Positions 152 to 23,128 are shown, counted from the first letter of the stretch. The stretch: 64,000 bases of DNA from an uncultured Candidatus Saccharibacteria bacterium (GCA_964415895.1 CAYQCC010000003.1:3053-67052), one strand, 5' to 3'. Notes: generated from the letters alone by a model not told the origin. Made by a program: numbers and translations.

Positions 152-236
152 GGAGGCGTGGATGAGTGGTTTAAATCAACAGTCTTGAAAACTGTCGACT
201 CGAAAGGGTCCGTGAGTTCGAATCTCACCGCCTCCG
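152..236 (+). tRNA. tRNA-Ser (anticodon TGA), class II with long variable arm
   Basis: Acceptor GGAGGCG/CGCCTCC; anticodon stem ACAGT/ACTGT with loop CTTGAAA (U33, anticodon UGA); long variable arm CGACTCGAAAGGGTCCG; T-arm GTGAG-TTCGAAT-CTCAC; discriminator G. Confidence 0.85.
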
Positions 237-1919
237 CATAGTGATACAAAACTCTTCGTTTTGATGATTTAACCCTTCGTATGTAAGGGTTTTTTCATTG
301 CCGAACCCCTCAAAATTGCTCTGTATCATTTTTATCCCAGAAAAGAATACTTCTATTGATTTTTTACTGTAAAATATGAGTTTTTCTTCATCCCATACTA
401 TGTTCGAACCCAGTGCAGTTAACACTCTTCTTTTTGCTTCATACGAACCGTTTTCAATTGTGTTTATTACTGATGATGCAACATCTGTTATTTCATCTAG
501 TTTTTTTACCCATTCAGTATTTACTGGCTTTGAATTATAAATATCGGAGTATTCAATATCTATCTCTGCCAAGAAATCATCTCGTTCTTCTTTTGTAAGT
601 GAGCCTTCAATAAATAATCTTGTGGCTCGTTTCTTTTTATCATCATACTGCTGTTTTCTTTTTTCAATATCTTCAATTTTTCGTAGACCATCTTTTACTT
701 CCTGTTCAGCTATTTCGTGAATATATTTCTTACCCCAATCAATGAAAGGGCTTGGAGTAGAGAGGTTGTCTTTTGCGTACTGAATAAATTCAGTATTTAC
801 TCTCTCTTCAGTCACAGAATGATATTCAAGTTTTTTCTTTTTCTTTCGGTTATCAAAATAATACTGTTGTATAAAATACTTAGGGTTTTCGAGTGTTGAA
901 ATTCGTTTGTTACATTTTGGACAGTGAGTTTTATCTCTATACGCAAATTTATGTTTGCAGTCGCACCATAGTTGTACTTTGATGTCCTGAGAAAGAGTGT
1001 ATCCTAGTGACGAATTAATAAAACCTGTATAGGTCATTTCGTGTTTTTGGTTTTTAGGCTTGTTTCTACCACCCAATATCTGCTCAATCTTGTTAAAATT
1101 GGTTTCGGTAATCATTCTTGGTAGGTTACTATCGAGCGTATGTCTCTCACCTTGAACATAAAAGAAACCTGCGATAACTGGATTATGGAGAAGTTTTCCA
1201 ATATATTCTCGAGTGACAAAATTTCCTCCTAAATTTTTATGTTTCGCTGTTGTAAGTTTTAATTCTTCAACGGCGTATTTATGAATTTTTGTAATGGAAT
1301 ATCTCCCTGAAAGAAATTCCTCTAAAAGTTTTTGGACTTTCCAAAAACGTTCATCATCCACATACCACCAACGTGTTCCTTTTTCTCCCTGTTTTGAATT
1401 TAGGTAACCAATAGTTGCAAGTCCTGAAGGTAGCCCCATTGTACGAGCCTTGTCTCGCTGTCCTCGTTTTACATCTCTACTGAGTGCTAGGGAATACTCT
1501 TTTGATGCACCAAATTTCTGTGCTATGACTGATACGTCGGAACTGTCATCCCAGACTTCAATGTTGTCATCACAAACAGTAATAATCATCAACTTGCCTT
1601 CACTCAAAAGGTCAATGAGAATACCTCCTTCGGTCATATTGCGAGCGATACGGTTCAAGTGCCACGCTAAAATACAGTTTATTTTTCCTGAAAAAATATC
1701 ACTCAACATTTGAGTAAACAGTGGTCGCTTGTGTGCATTTTTTGCAGAGCGAGCTTCTTGGTATTTTGATATTGCTGGAGTGAGAGTTTTATGTTTCTCT
1801 CTCACTTTGTTTATTGCGTCTTCTTGTCCCTCAAGTGATAGTACCTGTCTCTCTCCGTCTCGAGAAGATTTTCTCAAGTATTCAGCAATCTTTAAGTTTT
1901 TATTTTCTAGTTTTTCCAT
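225..1919 (-). CDS. Large serine recombinase (resolvase/integrase family, serine catalytic N-domain plus C-terminal recombinase/zinc-ribbon domain)
   Basis: N-terminal 'AEYLRKSSRDGERQVLSLEGQ' catalytic-serine motif; C-terminal Cys cluster 'CDCKHK...HCPKCNK'; 564 aa; stop lies ~12 nt inside the 3' end of tRNA-Ser. Confidence 0.8.
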   Translation of the reverse strand: MEKLENKNLKIAEYLRKSSRDGERQVLSLEGQEDAINKVREKHKTLTPAISKYQEARSAKNAHKRPLFTQMLSDIFSGKINCILAWHLNRIARNMTEGGILIDLLSEGKLMIITVCDDNIEVWDDSSDVSVIAQKFGASKEYSLALSRDVKRGQRDKARTMGLPSGLATIGYLNSKQGEKGTRWWYVDDERFWKVQKLLEEFLSGRYSITKIHKYAVEELKLTTAKHKNLGGNFVTREYIGKLLHNPVIAGFFYVQGERHTLDSNLPRMITETNFNKIEQILGGRNKPKNQKHEMTYTGFINSSLGYTLSQDIKVQLWCDCKHKFAYRDKTHCPKCNKRISTLENPKYFIQQYYFDNRKKKKKLEYHSVTEERVNTEFIQYAKDNLSTPSPFIDWGKKYIHEIAEQEVKDGLRKIEDIEKRKQQYDDKKKRATRLFIEGSLTKEERDDFLAEIDIEYSDIYNSKPVNTEWVKKLDEITDVASSVINTIENGSYEAKRRVLTALGSNIVWDEEKLIFYSKKSIEVFFSGIKMIQSNFEGFGNEKTLTYEGLNHQNEEFCITMRRR

Positions 1920-4368: not shown

Positions 4369-4573
4369 GCTACTTTCTGCTCAGTGACCGAATACGATAT
4401 TTGCCCGAATTTGATGGTGTTTTGTTAAAATAAGTAATTGGTACATTTTAAGATGAAAAACCTTATGAAGAGGCAAATAAGTGGCTTCTAGGTGGGTATC
4501 ATATTATAGGCTTACTGTCTAAAACTTATTATACCTGTCTTGGTTAATCTTCCTTATTTTTTTGTACGCATCC

Positions 4574-4597
4574 TGTCTAATCCTGTGGAGTTTTTGG
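4574..4597. repeat. Left boundary repeat 'tgtctaatcctgtggagtttttgg' (related to 12501..12524). Further 'GTCTAATCTT' copies at 4666..4678 and 4699..4710, and a tandem 'CCCTTGGGTT' x3 at 4632..4667
   Basis: Direct sequence comparison: 13-mer gtctaatcttacg identical at 4666..4678 and 12502..12514; flanking ggagtttttg shared. Confidence 0.6.
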
Positions 4598-4740
4598 TAC
4601 TATATTTATATTATCTATTCTTATCTCTTCTACCCTTGGGTTCCCCTTGGATTTCCCTTGGGTCTAGTATCTCTGGTCTAATCTTACGCAAAGTATCTGT
4701 ATTTTCAGGTCTAATCTTGCATAGATTTTATATAGACTTT

Positions 4741-6018
4741 CTAGTCTAAGACTGTTTTAAGAGTTTCTACTACCTGTAAATTTTCTCTTAGTGCCTTCTT
4801 TACTTCAGCCTCTAATACGTCTTTCCCTTTGTGGATAACCTTATTTCTAACATCTTTATACGAAGAACACCAGTTAGTCCACAACGACTGGTTTTTATTT
4901 TCTAAGGTAAATCCAGTAACTTCTCTTAAAACTTCTTTTAATCTTGTTTTTGTTTTCCAGTTATCGTCTTTAGATATAAAATCTATAGCCTCTTGCTCAG
5001 TTAAACCTTTATTCTTTTGCAGTTTATCAACAAGAAAGTTTTCAATAAAAATCTCAAGACCTTGATAGGATTGAACAACTGCTAATGCGTAGTTTTTATG
5101 ATTAAAGGAGTTTTCAGCATCCAGCAAAAGTAAGTTATACAGGTCTGGCTTTTGACCCTCTTCAAGCATTTTTTCTATTGCCTCAATTTCAACTTTTGAG
5201 CGATTTATAGTTGCCGTTTCTACATTCATTGGAAGAAGATATAAGCCTTGATTTAGTTCAGTGAAATAAATCATATTTATACTTAGCGTACCCAATCTTG
5301 TTATGTATTCTTGCTTAGTGGTAAATCGATAACTATCAATAAGTTTATTTACCGCATCAAGGGCTTTTTCATTGACCGTGTCTATAACTTTTTCTGATAG
5401 CTCTTTATTCTCGAGGTCTTCTTTTTTGACTTCTAAGTTGAACTGAATATATAAGCGAGTAAATCTGAAAATACCGTTTGTGTCCTTAATTTTTTGAAGG
5501 TTGATGCCTGTGTAATTTTGTTCCCAGCCATCACTAGGGTCAATTGGCATTTTAGGAGTAAGGAATTCACTGTCTTTTAAGTATGTAATTCTATCATCTG
5601 CGTAGAAATCAACTTCATCGGACGGTTTTCCGTCTGAAATAGCTTTTTTTGTCCAAATCTTTTGAGGTGTTAAAAGAGCAGCATCATCAGGGGTGTGTAA
5701 TAAGACTTCAAGGTCATAATTGTTTGGTATATGTAGACAGTAAGGTAGATGAGCTTCAACAAATACATTTCCGTAATCGAAATCTTTCATTGCATTTCTG
5801 CCATTAAAACTAAAAAAAGATTGTGCTACAAAAATACCACTTCCTCCTGTTGGGGATGTTTTTGTGATTTCAGTAAGCAATACAGATTTTGCATCATCTT
5901 CATTTAATTGTTTAAAGCTTTCATCTAATAAAGCATTAAAATTAATGAACTCGCCAGTTAAGCCTGATTTTGCTTGCATATTAATATGGACCACTTTTCG
6001 TTTGTATGGGTCTGACAT
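4741..6018 (-). CDS. Hypothetical 425-aa protein with C-terminal Rx4H (HEPN-like) motif 'VRNKVIHKG'; candidate abortive-infection/defence protein divergent from hsdM
   Basis: ORF track; R-x4-H motif ~40 aa from the C-terminus; position directly upstream of a Type I R-M operon. Confidence 0.45.
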   Translation of the reverse strand: MSDPYKRKVVHINMQAKSGLTGEFINFNALLDESFKQLNEDDAKSVLLTEITKTSPTGGSGIFVAQSFFSFNGRNAMKDFDYGNVFVEAHLPYCLHIPNNYDLEVLLHTPDDAALLTPQKIWTKKAISDGKPSDEVDFYADDRITYLKDSEFLTPKMPIDPSDGWEQNYTGINLQKIKDTNGIFRFTRLYIQFNLEVKKEDLENKELSEKVIDTVNEKALDAVNKLIDSYRFTTKQEYITRLGTLSINMIYFTELNQGLYLLPMNVETATINRSKVEIEAIEKMLEEGQKPDLYNLLLLDAENSFNHKNYALAVVQSYQGLEIFIENFLVDKLQKNKGLTEQEAIDFISKDDNWKTKTRLKEVLREVTGFTLENKNQSLWTNWCSSYKDVRNKVIHKGKDVLEAEVKKALRENLQVVETLKTVLD

Positions 6019-7599: not shown

Positions 7600-8832
7600 A
7601 TGCTTACAAATACCACAACAAATACATTTAACTTATCGCAAGATAACATTGAAGATATTGCAATTAATACTTCAAATGACGGAGAAACCTGCTATATTTC
7701 GAGAGCAGACAACAGAACCATATTTTATGGTGATTTTATTATTTACGATGGACCAAAAGTAAAAAAGTGTTGTAGTGTTACCTTTCAAAAAAGTAGCAAG
7801 ACGACAAAGTTTATACCTAGATTGGTTTTTTATAAAATCAACCAAGAAGGTAATATCGTAGACACGAATAGTCAGAAAGTAAACATTGAATTTAATCAAT
7901 CAGAAACAGGGCTATTTGAGTTTTGGAAGCTAATCTCATTCCTTAAGGGGTATAAAGACTTGATTGATGTCGGTGACTTTGATGAAAAGTATAAAGTTAT
8001 TGATAATTCTTTGTACATTGCAGAATTTAAAAATAAACAAGAATTTGATAAGGTACAAGAATTAAAAAAGCTAGATATTGATGAGGATACTCTTAAATCA
8101 TATTTAGCAGATAAACGAAAAGATGATTTAGTTTTATTTGCACAACTTTTAGCCGATAATAAGGCTAGAGAAGATTATCGAACTCAATACAATGTTACAA
8201 AGCAAGGAGATGAGGCAATATGGCATCATTTCTTAAAAAATAGAACTTGGATATTGGGCTTAAATACAGAACTTAAGTTTATTCAGGACTTTGCCGATGA
8301 GGTCCACGTTGGTAATCCTGATACAACAAACAAAGGAAATCCAACCACTGATTTAATGGGTATTTCAGACTATACCACCCTTGTTGAGCTAAAAACCTCT
8401 GAAACTAAGTTCTTTACAGAAACTAAAACATCAAATTCTCGAGCTGGTACTTGGTCTTTTTCCGCAGAGTTTATTGAGGGTATAAGTCAATGCTTATCTC
8501 AAAAAAATAGTTGGGATAAAAATCAGGGTTCTAAGCAATTAGTTGTTGATGGAAGCGTTAAAGACCAAAACGTTTATAGAACTACTGACCCAAACACTGT
8601 ATTTATTATCGGAAACAAAGAAAAAGAATTACCCAAAAACCAAACAACTCCAGATATTCTCGTAAAAAGAGATACACTTGAAAGATTTCGTCGAAATAGT
8701 CGAAATGTTGTTATCATTTCATATGATGAGCTTTACCAAAAGGCTTATTATATAGTTCACCATACAACTGCTCCAGATTTGGTGTACGATAATGAAAAAT
8801 TATCAGAAGACACTAATAGTATCCCATTTTAA
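7600..8832 (+). CDS. Uncharacterised 410-aa protein embedded between hsdM and hsdS; C-terminal PD-(D/E)xK-like motif (D...ELK); candidate R-M-embedded defence nuclease (DUF4263/Shedu-like?)
   Basis: 5-nt and 3-nt gaps to hsdM and hsdS indicate co-transcription; motif 'GISDYTTLVELKTSE'; no M/S/R-subunit motifs. Confidence 0.5.
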   Translation: MLTNTTTNTFNLSQDNIEDIAINTSNDGETCYISRADNRTIFYGDFIIYDGPKVKKCCSVTFQKSSKTTKFIPRLVFYKINQEGNIVDTNSQKVNIEFNQSETGLFEFWKLISFLKGYKDLIDVGDFDEKYKVIDNSLYIAEFKNKQEFDKVQELKKLDIDEDTLKSYLADKRKDDLVLFAQLLADNKAREDYRTQYNVTKQGDEAIWHHFLKNRTWILGLNTELKFIQDFADEVHVGNPDTTNKGNPTTDLMGISDYTTLVELKTSETKFFTETKTSNSRAGTWSFSAEFIEGISQCLSQKNSWDKNQGSKQLVVDGSVKDQNVYRTTDPNTVFIIGNKEKELPKNQTTPDILVKRDTLERFRRNSRNVVIISYDELYQKAYYIVHHTTAPDLVYDNEKLSEDTNSIPF

Positions 8833-8835
8833 TTT

Positions 8836-10047
8836 ATGAAAACTAACTGGGAAATAAAAAAGCTAGATGAATTATACAGGGTTGGCTCGAGTAAACGAGT
8901 GCTAAAGTCTCAATGGAAAACCAAAGGGGTGCCTTTTTATAGAGGTAGAGAGATAACACGTCTTTCCAATGATGGTTTTGTTGAAAATGAGTTGTATATT
9001 TCTGAAGAGCACTATACTGAACTTTTAGAAAAAACAGGTGTTCCAGTTGCTGGGGATATTGTTATTACTGCAATTGGGACAATCGGAAATACGTATATAG
9101 TTCGTGATACAGATAAGTTTTATTTTAAAGATGCGAGCGTTTTGTGGCTTAAAAAAATCTCCGATGTAAGTAGTGAGTTTTTGAGATATTTTTTGAAATC
9201 ATCATTATTTTTCAATCAATTAAGCAAAGGAAATGGTGCAACCGTTGACACCCTAACAATAGAAAAGTTGCAAGGAATTAAACTACCCTTGCCCTCTTTA
9301 ATTGAACAAAAACGCATTGTTTCCATTCTAGATAAAGCTTTTAGTGAAATTGAAAAAGCAAAAACAAATGCTGAGCAAAACCTCAAAAATGCGAAAGAGC
9401 TTTTTGAAAGTTATTTACAAGGGGTGTTTGAGAATAAAGGTGAAGATTGGGAAGAGAAAACATTAGGAGAGGTTTTAGTAAAAACAGAAACTGTTGACCC
9501 AACCAAAAAACCAAATAAAGAGTTTATTTATCTTGATGTTTCAAGTGTAAATAAGGAAACCAAAGAAATTGAAAATGCTACCGTTTTGCTTGGCAAAGAT
9601 GCACCAAGCCGAGCTAGAAAGTTGGTTAGAACTAACGATGTTATTTTTGCTACTGTTAGACCAACTCATAGTAGAGTTGCTCTAATTACTGATGAGTATG
9701 ATGAACAAGTTTGTAGCACAGGTTATTTTGTTTTAAGAGCAAAGGATTTTCTTAATAATAATTTTGTGTTCTATTTTCTTCTTACATACGGTTTCAATAA
9801 ACAGATGGAAAAACTTCAAAAAGGAGCAAGTTATCCTGCTGTAACTGATGCAGAAGTCAAAAGCATTGTAATACCTTTTCCAAAATCAAAAGAAGAACAA
9901 CAAGCAACCATTCAAAAATTAGATACCCTGCGAGCCGAAACCAAAAAACTTGAAGAAATATACAGAAATAAAATTACAGACTGCGAAGAACTCAAAAAGT
10001 CGATTTTACACAAAGCCTTTACTGGCGAATTATCAACCCCTAACTAA
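8836..10047 (+). CDS. hsdS: Type I restriction-modification system, specificity subunit S (two target-recognition domains)
   Basis: 403 aa; duplicated TRD architecture with conserved central and C-terminal coiled-coil spacers (LPLPSL...QKRIVSILD...; LDTLRAET). Confidence 0.8.
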   Translation: MKTNWEIKKLDELYRVGSSKRVLKSQWKTKGVPFYRGREITRLSNDGFVENELYISEEHYTELLEKTGVPVAGDIVITAIGTIGNTYIVRDTDKFYFKDASVLWLKKISDVSSEFLRYFLKSSLFFNQLSKGNGATVDTLTIEKLQGIKLPLPSLIEQKRIVSILDKAFSEIEKAKTNAEQNLKNAKELFESYLQGVFENKGEDWEEKTLGEVLVKTETVDPTKKPNKEFIYLDVSSVNKETKEIENATVLLGKDAPSRARKLVRTNDVIFATVRPTHSRVALITDEYDEQVCSTGYFVLRAKDFLNNNFVFYFLLTYGFNKQMEKLQKGASYPAVTDAEVKSIVIPFPKSKEEQQATIQKLDTLRAETKKLEEIYRNKITDCEELKKSILHKAFTGELSTPN

Positions 10048-12468: not shown

Positions 12469-12500
12469 TAGATTAAGTTTTCTATAAAGTTTACGTGTCT

Positions 12501-12524
12501 TGTCTAATCTTACGGAGTTTTTGT
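12501..12524. repeat. Right boundary repeat 'tgtctaatcttacggagtttttgt' (direct-orientation partner of 4574..4597)
   Basis: See left repeat; same orientation; brackets the 425-aa gene plus hsdM-X-hsdS-hsdR. Confidence 0.6.
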
Positions 12525-12637
12525 TTAATTATCTTGATTATTTCGGGTGCTTGGTTGCTCATTCATTCATTTTCTTTGGTTATTATTTTTAGAACATCTT
12601 TACAAGTTTTGGAGTAAGAATTTTTTATATAGTCTAT

Positions 12638-12788
12638 GATAGGCTATCGATAGTCTATCGTTTACTATCTTTAGATATATTGCTTATGCTTACGCTTCTT
12701 TCAATATTGCTTTCCGAACATCATCCCACGTTCGGAGTAGGGATATTTGTTTTTGTTATAGTCTAAGATAGTCTATAGATAGACTATC
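12638..12788. promoter_or_regulatory. Cluster of palindromic operator-like boxes GATAG(G/T)CTATC. Two abutting copies at 12638..12659 and an inverted pair 'gatagtctat-ag-atagactatc' at 12767..12788
   Basis: Exact palindromes read in sequence; located in a 730-bp intergenic region between hsdR and the HNH gene. Confidence 0.45.
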
Positions 12789-12832
12789 TTGTTTATATTT
12801 TACGCTTCTTCTAATATTGCTTGCCGAACATC
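12690..12832. repeat. Two 33-bp direct repeats 'ttacgcttctt(t/c)(c/t)aatattgctt(t/g)ccgaacatc' (12690..12722 and 12800..12832), 110 bp apart, flanking the palindromic boxes
   Basis: 30/33 identity by eye alignment. Confidence 0.6.
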
Positions 12833-13146: not shown

Positions 13147-14241
13147 ATGCCTAGATGTATTTATTGTTTGAAAACAAGTCCAGAAGTTACTTTCGACACA
13201 ACGGAACATGTAATCCCTCAGTCTTTTGGTACTTACGAACCATTAACTCCTACTCTCGAGGAGCTAGTTTGTGATTCGTGCAATTCATTGTTTTCAAAAC
13301 TTGAAACCAAATTAAGAGAAGATACCTTTGAGGGTGTTTTTGGGCAAAGACTTAACTTTCAAAATAAAAACAGTATCACCATAAGAAATAAAAATTTCAA
13401 GATTACTTCTTTAAGTGAATTTAAAGATCCAATGTTTACTAGAACATTTTTTCTTTTTAAAATTGAAGATGAAAAGATTGTGCCTGATATCAAACCTCAC
13501 ATAACTATTAAAATGAAAAATGGCGGGTATAGAGTATTTCTTATAGAAGCACTGAAAAGAATAGAGAAAGATACCAGCAGGTTCAATAAGCTTAAAAAAG
13601 ATATATCAAAACTGAGCAAAGAAGACATTTGGATTTTTGTCCCTAGAGATGATGCTTCTTTGAAAGAAGCGGAGTCGATATTAAAAGATTACGGTATTGA
13701 ATATACAGAAAAGAGTAGAGGTATAGCTGGAGAAGAAACTCCGGAAGCAGTCGAAGTCATAGAGGATTACCAAGGTGTTGTAGATAAAGAAATTTGCAGG
13801 GTTTTAGCAAAAATAGTTTTTAACTATTTTACGTATTGTGCTAAAGAACAAGGAATGGCTGATTTGGTCTTCAGTCCAAATTTTGATCCTATTCGAAACT
13901 TTATTTTAAATGGCGCTGGATATAGTGATACTTTTGTACATATGCCCGAGAGGCGAATTCTAGGGCAAGAGGTTGGAACTAATAGGTATGTCTTTGGTCA
14001 TACGGTATGTTTCGGAGAAGATGAGGCAGGGAAAGTTTATTGTCACTTAGTTCTTTTCAGTTTTCGGCCTTACACAATATCTCTGGGAATTCTTCCGCAA
14101 GAAATAAAAAATCAATTATTTGGCTGCGGGCATGTTTTTGATCCTGTAACAAAACGAATTGAAAATATTGCTCAAAATACACAACCCCGCATGCCTGATG
14201 CTCTCGATCTGTCTTTTGGACTATATAAAAGATTTAGATAG
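13147..14241 (+). CDS. HNH (His-Me finger) nuclease-domain protein with ~300-aa uncharacterised C-terminal extension; candidate defence protein
   Basis: N-terminal 'CIYC...EHVIPQSFG...CDSCNS' matches the CxxC...[DE]H...P...CxxCN HNH signature; 364 aa. Confidence 0.55.
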   Translation: MPRCIYCLKTSPEVTFDTTEHVIPQSFGTYEPLTPTLEELVCDSCNSLFSKLETKLREDTFEGVFGQRLNFQNKNSITIRNKNFKITSLSEFKDPMFTRTFFLFKIEDEKIVPDIKPHITIKMKNGGYRVFLIEALKRIEKDTSRFNKLKKDISKLSKEDIWIFVPRDDASLKEAESILKDYGIEYTEKSRGIAGEETPEAVEVIEDYQGVVDKEICRVLAKIVFNYFTYCAKEQGMADLVFSPNFDPIRNFILNGAGYSDTFVHMPERRILGQEVGTNRYVFGHTVCFGEDEAGKVYCHLVLFSFRPYTISLGILPQEIKNQLFGCGHVFDPVTKRIENIAQNTQPRMPDALDLSFGLYKRFR

Positions 14242-22225: not shown

Positions 22226-23128
22226 GTGTCAATTCCCTGCTATCGTTACGCTATGAGAACATCATTCGACAATGTTTTACGAAAACGACTGATCATTGAA
22301 GCAATTGTTTCGCCTGAGAGTGCGCGCAATTTAAGCAATGTGACTTTTCTTGAAAATTACCTAAGAGACTTAAGCACTCGCGCAAACATGACAATCATGT
22401 TTGGTCCGCTCGTTCACAACTGGGCAGAGCAGCTTGATTATGAAAAATATGCAGGACTGGAAGGTGTGATCATCTGGGCTGAGTCAGGCGTGCAATTATA
22501 TACCTGGGAAAAACATAACGCTCTTACTATTGATATTTATAGCTGCAAGGACTTTTCCATTAACGAGATGGTAGAATTTACAAAAAATTACTTTACTACT
22601 GAAAAAATTGAGTGGAAGGAGGTGGAACCTATCCTAACTCTTGGCTTACCTGAAAACGAACATGTTGAAGTGCGAGATACCCCACATAAAGGAAAAGGCC
22701 TCTTTTTAAAGCATGACGTAAAAAAAGATACAATACTTGCGAGTTTTGACGCTGACATTCATTATGCAAAACGCGCTAGCGAACTTTCACTTCCTGTTCG
22801 AGATCGTGGTATTCAGTGCGGAGAATATTTTTACCGTGACTCTTACCTTATTCAATTTATTAATCATTCTTGTGAACCAAATGCAGGAGTGCATGGATTA
22901 TTTGATATTGTCGCAATGGACAACTTAAAAGCAGGAACTGAAATTAATTTTGATTATGCAATGAGCGAAGATAGCGACTGGGAACTGCCAAATGGAGCTT
23001 GTAAGTGCGGAACCCCAACATGCCGGGGAAAAGTTGGATCTTATAAAAATCTCCCTCTTTCAAAAAAAGCTGAGTATTGGGATTACACTTCTGATTGGCT
23101 GAAAGAAAAATATGGATTTCCAAAATAA
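22226..23128 (+). CDS. Fusion protein: N-terminal pyruvoyl-type S-adenosylmethionine decarboxylase-like domain plus C-terminal SET-domain methyltransferase
   Basis: 'IWAESGVQLYTWEKH' resembles the SpeD/SpeH Glu-Ser self-cleavage motif; SET motifs 'GKGLFL', 'NHSCEPN', post-SET 'CKCGTPTCRGK'. Confidence 0.55.
   Translation: MSIPCYRYAMRTSFDNVLRKRLIIEAIVSPESARNLSNVTFLENYLRDLSTRANMTIMFGPLVHNWAEQLDYEKYAGLEGVIIWAESGVQLYTWEKHNALTIDIYSCKDFSINEMVEFTKNYFTTEKIEWKEVEPILTLGLPENEHVEVRDTPHKGKGLFLKHDVKKDTILASFDADIHYAKRASELSLPVRDRGIQCGEYFYRDSYLIQFINHSCEPNAGVHGLFDIVAMDNLKAGTEINFDYAMSEDSDWELPNGACKCGTPTCRGKVGSYKNLPLSKKAEYWDYTSDWLKEKYGFPK

Follow-up and report, generated by a model that had tools for sequence, protein, structure and literature searches.

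Results

The window analysed here is a 64,000-nucleotide (nt) stretch of DNA from an uncultured Candidatus Saccharibacteria bacterium (GCA_964415895.1, CAYQCC010000003.1:3053-67052). It carries a gene for a protein of 410 amino acids (aa), referred to here as sduA, which is lodged between hsdM and hsdS of a Type I restriction-modification (R-M) operon. The protein is almost certainly a member of the Shedu (SduA) family and is of the long form, termed Type 1 by Gu et al. and type I by Loeff et al. The explanation that we favour, and consider probable, is that SduA is a Shedu nuclease that works autonomously and inhibits itself, sharing both transcript and transfer with the R-M system and adding a second layer of defence. 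It is based on the family, fold and catalytic motifs of the protein, the layout of the operon and the recurrent embedding of related genes in R-M systems.

Family assignment

The Pfam SduA_C/DUF4263 profile (PF14082) matched aa 204-379 of the open reading frame (ORF) with 76.9 bits against a gathering score of 27, covering profile positions 3-159 of 159. Ten SduA models of PADLOC also matched the ORF, the best being PDLC00392 (1.7e-54; aa 66-390; model positions 71-393 of 396), with PDLC00391 (8.2e-38) covering model positions 14-400 of 402 and another SduA model spanning aa 6-387 of the ORF. PADLOC assigns Shedu from a single gene at E ≤ 1e-25 and at least 50% model coverage (Payne et al. 2021), a deliberately strict criterion within which the ORF falls. 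A search of 5.8 billion proteins returned 144 homologs; PF14082 was present in 120/120 among the matches listed, and several homologs carry the NCBI name 'Shedu immune nuclease family protein'. The only match in a PDB sequence search was B. cereus SduA (8TI8/8TI9; E 2.5e-05), limited to approximately aa 198-383, and NCBIfam gave no meaningful match for the ORF. Approximately 200 residues stand ahead of the nuclease domain, which places the protein in the long-form class.

An earlier note on this DNA had put forward a 'DUF4263/Shedu-like' identity, which is upheld by the Pfam and PADLOC matches and by Foldseek matches to solved Shedu structures. Identity as an HsdS fragment was ruled out, there being no Pfam Methylase_S match for the ORF at E ≤ 1, and the Pfam results likewise ruled out a housekeeping family.

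Predicted structure and active site

In a full-length AlphaFold2 (AF2) model based on 55 homologs, the predicted local distance difference test score (pLDDT) was 78.9, with both globular parts mostly above 85-90. All of the significant Foldseek matches of this model (8/8) were solved Shedu chains, and the nuclease fold agrees with the solved SduA structures. The nuclease-like fold that the earlier note had proposed to look for by structure prediction and Foldseek is therefore present.

Conservation was counted in an alignment of 55 homologs, and the equivalences with the B. cereus enzyme were taken from pairwise alignment. The Shedu PD-(D/E)xK motifs of B. cereus are E204, D249, E264/K266 and Q295 (Gu et al.). 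The candidate motif residues of the window protein, E205, D251, E263/K265 and Q297, are invariant among the homologs (Table 1), as is Q301. The peptide GISDYTTLVELKTSE at aa 254-268 holds motif III (E-L-K). A compact PD-(D/E)xK signature had previously been read in the C-terminal third of the protein; the nuclease domain and the ExK of that reading were right, whereas the aspartate, D257, was probably not. D257 lies within GISDYTTLVELKTSE, in the hairpin joining two core strands, and is variable among the 55 homologs (45 D, 9 E, 1 N). D251 is the more probable aspartate of motif II, since this residue is invariant, lies on the preceding strand and is aligned with B. cereus D249. Homologs down to 38% identity also share about 30 more positions without variation. 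The invariance of the catalytic and these other positions argues for purifying selection on what would be an active enzyme.

The N-terminal domain, when modelled in isolation, gave a pLDDT of 86.2 and a predicted template modelling score (pTM) of 0.79. Its profile returned only 186 clusters at 50% identity from 1.84 billion representatives, and the domain is almost always N-terminal in 360-430-aa proteins bearing SduA_C. As judged from these profile matches, it is a Shedu-specific putative sensor. The helices that follow, at aa 146-197, are by analogy a probable counterpart of the linker domain of B. cereus SduA. One 689-aa protein of the representative library (P0251) carries AbiJ_NTD3 (2.8e-40), then the N-terminal domain of this clade (aa 299-414) and then SduA_C (9.9e-27), and appears to be a Shedu protein with an extra AbiJ-type N-terminal module.

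Operon organisation

The Type I R-M operon is complete, with HsdM, HsdS and HsdR all present with catalytic motifs. HsdM has an intact NPPF at aa 288 and an intact AdoMet motif (DGAVGSAGF) at aa 201; HsdR has a D52..E66xK68 nuclease motif and a DECH box at aa 293. The intergenic gaps are 5 nt (hsdM-sduA), 3 nt (sduA-hsdS) and 9 nt (hsdS-hsdR), and the coordinates agree with the position of sduA given in the earlier note. Its observation that the ORF is without M, S or R motifs also stands, as no M, S or R family was matched in Pfam. Being on the same strand as hsdM and hsdS and between them, sduA is an 'embedded' defence gene in the sense of Payne et al. 2024. The strand opposite the sduA ORF held no ORF of ≥ 80 aa.

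A terminator scan found no terminator-like hairpin in the gaps on either side of sduA. The scan returned 9 sites against 4.1 expected, mostly weak 5-6-pair stems within genes, and the hairpin downstream of hsdR is the sole persuasive terminator among them. A scan for sigma-70 promoters did not exceed shuffled sequence in its yield and was uninformative on internal promoters. Because the gaps are short and free of hairpins, and the hairpin stands only after hsdR, co-transcription of hsdM-sduA-hsdS-hsdR is likely.

Related loci

The window locus has two further identical copies, on contigs of independent sequencing runs. In P0002, the closest homolog (58% SduA identity), the order hsdM-sduA-hsdS-hsdR is kept, with the genes overlapping or abutting, and its HsdM, HsdS and HsdR are 71, 51 and 63% identical to those of the window. 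Because P0002 keeps the layout with M, S and R diverged alongside SduA, the four-gene cassette is inherited as a unit. The same M-SduA-S slot is occupied in locus L038 (46% SduA identity), where HsdM is just 24% identical to the window HsdM, and sduA also lies between hsdM and hsdS in more distant Shedu clades (L079, L100). None of the 12 reference-genome loci had hsdMSR near sduA. The notion of a unique arrangement, which would follow from the reference genomes, was ruled out by its recurrence in the closest metagenomic homologs.

Two other kinds of R-M partner were found for the same clade. Four non-redundant loci (L020, L021, L023 and L024; e.g., L023 297-8917) have the order SNF2 helicase (~980 aa), SduA, N6_N4 methyltransferase (~525 aa) and ResIII protein (~941 aa), with gaps of about -11 to 5 nt and a weak TnsA-like N-terminal match in the ResIII protein; some are from Patescibacteria metagenome-assembled genomes. 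The cassette has the appearance of a variant of Type III-like R-M in which a Shedu gene is nested. L019 and L020 both have a DUF2779 gene in the vicinity. In another four loci (L047 3266-6382, L051 232-3234, L053 3962-6988 and L061 3954-6944), an MmeI-like enzyme of ~1000 aa is encoded just upstream of sduA (-4 to 6 nt); these are single-chain N6_Mtase/Eco57I/MmeI_Mtase/TaqI_C proteins with NPPY at about aa 565. The MmeI-like (Type IIG-like) genes are a third R-M partner type for this Shedu clade. In L019, sduA lies beside a C5 methyltransferase and a PvuII-like gene.

Across the ~50 assessable non-redundant loci of the clade, a Type I R-M location was seen in three, and approximately a fifth abut R-M genes of Type I, Type III-like or Type IIG type. 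Most have unrelated neighbours and no abutting R-M gene. In L018, an intact sduA (8001-9230; 51% identity) directly follows a 56-residue remnant of an HsdM C-terminus at 7769-7933, which is 68% identical to aa 410-465 of the window HsdM (E 1e-15); the gene is otherwise flanked by a helix-turn-helix/M78 gene and a NERD gene. From this similarity, the remnant is the relic of a former hsdM-sduA junction, at a locus where the R-M system decayed and Shedu stayed. The sduA homolog was split in two ORFs or interrupted in L011 (6240-8819), L012 (8013-9219), L013, L045 (7001-8245) and L061 (6950-8159). These look like pseudogenes or insertions, and the gene has thus also been lost in some lineages.

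Table 1. Positions of the sduA gene, its encoded domains and motifs, and other features in the window.
Feature	Position	Strand	Remarks
tRNA-Ser(TGA)	152-237	+	
Large serine recombinase, 564 aa	225-1919	-	Resolvase domain, 1.5e-14; 13-nt overlap with tRNA-Ser
hsdM, Type I R-M methyltransferase subunit, 485 aa	6137-7594	+	Pfam N6_Mtase 3.8e-64, HsdM_N 5.6e-09
sduA, long-form (Type 1) Shedu nuclease, 410 aa	7600-8832	+	ATG 7600, TAA 8830-8832
N-terminal putative sensor domain, aa 8-120, six beta-strands and one helix	7621-7959	+	
Helical linker, aa 146-197, sensor to nuclease domain	8035-8190	+	AF2 helices 146-157, 162-185, 187-197
DUF4263/SduA_C PD-(D/E)xK nuclease domain, aa 204-387	8209-8760	+	
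E205 codon, nuclease motif I	8212-8214	+	Invariant 55/55; aligns with B. cereus SduA motif I glutamate region
D251 codon, probable nuclease motif II	8350-8352	+	Invariant 55/55; aligns with B. cereus D249
E263-L264-K265 codons, nuclease motif III	8386-8394	+	E263, K265 invariant 55/55; align with B. cereus E264/K266
Q297 codon, candidate nuclease motif IV	8488-8490	+	Invariant 55/55; on helix past core strands, like B. cereus Q295
hsdS, Type I specificity subunit, 403 aa	8836-10047	+	Pfam Methylase_S, two stretches, 1.6e-33
hsdR, Type I restriction/translocase subunit, 785 aa	10057-12414	+	Pfam HSDR_N, ResIII, Helicase_C, EcoEI_R_C
Terminator-like hairpin, likely operon 3' end	12764-12791	+	12-pair stem, 4-nt loop, then T-rich tail

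Surrounding window

Divergent from hsdM lies a 425-aa gene (4741-6018, minus strand) whose HEPN matches are all sub-threshold. The Pfam match is to HEPN_Apea (E 0.0029; 18.5 bits, cut-off 24.4) and the PADLOC match to CARF_HEPN (5.6e-4); each falls in the C-terminal quarter, where an Rx4H-type string (RNKVIH) is also present. By these matches, the gene could be a HEPN-type defence gene of a poorly described kind, and arguably it holds more promise of novelty than the Shedu gene. A 364-aa protein is encoded at 13147-14241 (plus strand), immediately past the R-M operon and beside a 53-aa ORF, with an N-terminal HNH_5 endonuclease motif (7.8e-09, aa 4-55) and ~300 residues without a family match.

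A 17-nt direct repeat, TCTGGTCTAATCTTACG, is present at 4672-4688 and 12498-12514 (the second copy with 1 mismatch), where 0.01 matches would be expected by chance; the two copies bracket the HEPN-like gene and the hsd/sduA operon. Motifs resembling GTCTAATC and TAGTCTAT recur several times on either flank, at 4516-4750 and 12630-12790. The 17-nt repeats and these flank motifs may mark the limits of modules or serve as sites for protein binding. A 33-nt repeat occurs three times (67-100% identity; copies spaced by 124 and 110 nt) at 12566-12832, in the 730-nt intergenic region past hsdR, interleaved with the palindrome at 12764-12791. The ~14 kb that follow the tRNA-Ser and the recombinase comprise the HEPN-like gene, hsdM-sduA-hsdS-hsdR and the HNH gene. 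Because the tRNA-Ser is abutted by the serine recombinase and the 17-nt repeat is bracketing, this arrangement suggests an integrated mobile defence island. A repeat of the tRNA-Ser 3' end was searched for as an island boundary and none was found.

Elsewhere in the window, a 300-aa protein (22226-23128, plus strand) joins an AdoMet_dc domain (S-adenosylmethionine decarboxylase, 1.3e-14) with a SET methyltransferase domain (3.2e-07). The DNA polymerase I encoded in the window shares a cluster, at ≥ 90% identity, with a protein of a Candidatus Paceibacterota metagenome-assembled genome, which makes Patescibacteria the probable origin of the DNA.

Discussion

The window protein can be read against two Shedu enzymes of solved structure. 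In the B. cereus SduA (8TI8/8TI9; Type 1A of Gu et al., the class with an sPC4/Whirly N-terminal domain), the N-terminal and linker regions exert autoinhibition, and a conformational change activates the enzyme. The E. coli SduA (PDB 8PS4; a type I Shedu of Loeff et al.) is a tetramer whose N-terminal clamp senses free double-stranded DNA (dsDNA) ends, and it nicks 14 bp from the 5' end. In the explanation that we favour, the window SduA would be a three-part protein, with an N-terminal sensor (aa ~8-120), a helical linker (aa ~146-197) and a PD-(D/E)xK nuclease (aa 204-387). It would form a homotetramer, as the B. cereus and E. coli enzymes suggest by analogy, and would be kept inactive by its own N-terminal and linker regions. 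A phage-associated nucleic-acid cue, for which free DNA ends or replication or recombination intermediates are the default guess from those enzymes, would be sensed by the N-terminal domain and would switch SduA on, and the activated enzyme would nick phage DNA or cleave it. Sharing the hsd transcript and moving together with the R-M system, SduA would act without need of the R-M proteins. As a mechanistically different second layer, it would catch phages that escape Type I restriction as methylated progeny, through anti-restriction proteins or by having few target sites. Co-transcription, oligomeric state, autoinhibition, trigger and anti-phage activity are the parts of this explanation that we infer.

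That a single gene would suffice has indirect support from the clade loci without an abutting R-M gene and from L018, where hsdM has decayed. The best functional precedent for an independent second layer would be TgvAB of the V. cholerae island VPI-2, a GmrSD-like Type IV system that is nested in a Type I R-M operon and defends independently of HsdR. It resembles the window SduA as a nuclease-based defence inside a Type I R-M operon, and differs in being a two-protein, modification-dependent system of the family DUF262/DUF1524.

Several observations weigh against this explanation. Confidence in the full-length AF2 model is no more than moderate (pLDDT 78.9, pTM 0.60). No relative of the N-terminal domain was detected among solved structures, so that the trigger cannot be transferred from the studied enzymes; its profile found nothing significant among PDB sequences (best E 0.85), and the isolated domain model failed to retrieve the E. 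coli entry 8ps4, where the N-terminal domains make up the end clamp. The E. coli and window proteins are 13-16% identical, and the failure to retrieve 8ps4 means that end sensing is not to be assumed for the window SduA. The layout of P0002, with its co-diverged M, S and R, also leaves room for some functional coupling.

One form that such coupling could take is compatible with the autonomy of SduA: the enzyme would be triggered mainly by the double-strand ends that HsdR generates on unmodified phage DNA and would amplify restriction. Gu et al. propose that Shedu may complement R-M or BREX. We nevertheless regard product coupling as unlikely. Although E. coli SduA recognises free dsDNA ends, the N-terminal domain found here is not detectably related to its end clamp, and although approximately a fifth of the clade loci adjoin translocating or cut-at-a-distance R-M enzymes (Type I, Type III-like or Type IIG), most clade members have no R-M neighbour. 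Literature searches found no experiment on Shedu/R-M synergy, and no study on the functional coupling of a nested Shedu with its host R-M, whether independent, additive or synergistic.

A tentative thought, to which we give little credence, is that the small Shedu clade marked by this N-terminal domain may have a function adapted to R-M systems. What the domain detects could be a product or state, for instance ends or stalled translocation complexes, of restriction enzymes that are ATP-dependent or cut at a distance; alternatively, the domain could make contact with the adenine methyltransferase subunit specified by the adjacent gene. If this were true, the embedding between hsdM and hsdS, before mod or after an MmeI-like gene would be a mechanistic partnership and not mere hitchhiking.

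The earlier note had likened sduA to the nucleases PrrC and RloC, held in check by the R-M complex. SduA would then be latent, bound and silenced by the Type I complex, and freed when Ocr, ArdA or a Stp-like protein disables R-M. PrrC is an established precedent for such logic, and the likeness lies in the position inside the hsd operon and the presumed co-expression. The tight embedding of sduA between hsdM and hsdS, the conservation of the cassette at 58% SduA identity with co-diverged M, S and R, and the recurrence of the M-SduA-S slot both in L038, with another Type I family, and in L079 and L100, which are of distant Shedu clades, would all fit. We consider a silenced guard improbable, however, and the analogy found no support in the domain searches and the wider survey of loci. 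PrrC and RloC combine an ABC (PrrC) or Rad50-like (RloC) ATPase with an anticodon-nuclease domain, whereas the window SduA is an unrelated protein without them; Pfam, NCBIfam and PADLOC found no ATPase domain in the ORF and no matches beyond SduA, and membership in PrrC/RloC was ruled out by the absent ATPase domains in Pfam. Their target is tRNA, whereas that of the window SduA is presumably DNA. PrrC is almost exclusively embedded in Type I R-M systems (Payne et al.), unlike the SduA clade, with its three Type I locations in ~50 loci; members of the clade also adjoin Type III-like and Type IIG-like genes and, in most cases, stand without any R-M neighbour, and L018 keeps sduA after the decay of hsdM. 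The characterised Shedu enzymes, moreover, are autoinhibited on their own and defend as single genes.

It is very improbable that sduA is a decaying or purely selfish hitchhiker without current defence function: some relatives are split or frameshifted (L011-L013, L045, L061) and linked transfer alone can benefit an embedded gene (Payne et al.), but the window ORF is full length, its catalytic residues and ~30 other positions are invariant down to 38% identity, indicating purifying selection, and identical copies stand on the two further contigs.

An autonomous Shedu nuclease nested in an R-M operon is in line with published surveys. Gu et al. 2023 counted 602 of 5,499 Shedu genes inside R-M systems of Types I-IV, and Payne et al. 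2024 described defence genes embedded in Type I R-M, BREX, DISARM and Hma systems as a general phenomenon, with the embedded gene oriented like the host system in 96.7% of cases. The window sduA resembles these cases as a Shedu gene flanked by Type I R-M genes that run in the same direction, and nothing categorical sets it apart; its clade is small (186 clusters at 50% identity) and has an N-terminal domain of its own. The description of the gene as 'uncharacterised' cannot be kept, as the Shedu family has been named, structurally solved and mechanistically studied, nor is it a 'novel defence component', since Shedu genes within R-M systems, Type I included, had been counted by Gu et al. The gene is well supported yet ordinary as a defence gene, both its family and its nesting in R-M having been published.

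The locus adds a securely annotated Shedu gene and a clean case of nesting, with the defence gene inside a Type I R-M operon, on an apparent tRNA-associated island. Existing knowledge is unchanged, because the Shedu family and its nesting in R-M systems are both in the literature. The remaining interest lies in the confidently predicted N-terminal domain, which is restricted to Shedu proteins, and in the recurrent adjoining of this clade to methyltransferase genes of three R-M types. The compact four-gene operon is a convenient construct for asking whether a nested Shedu and its R-M system act independently, additively or synergistically.
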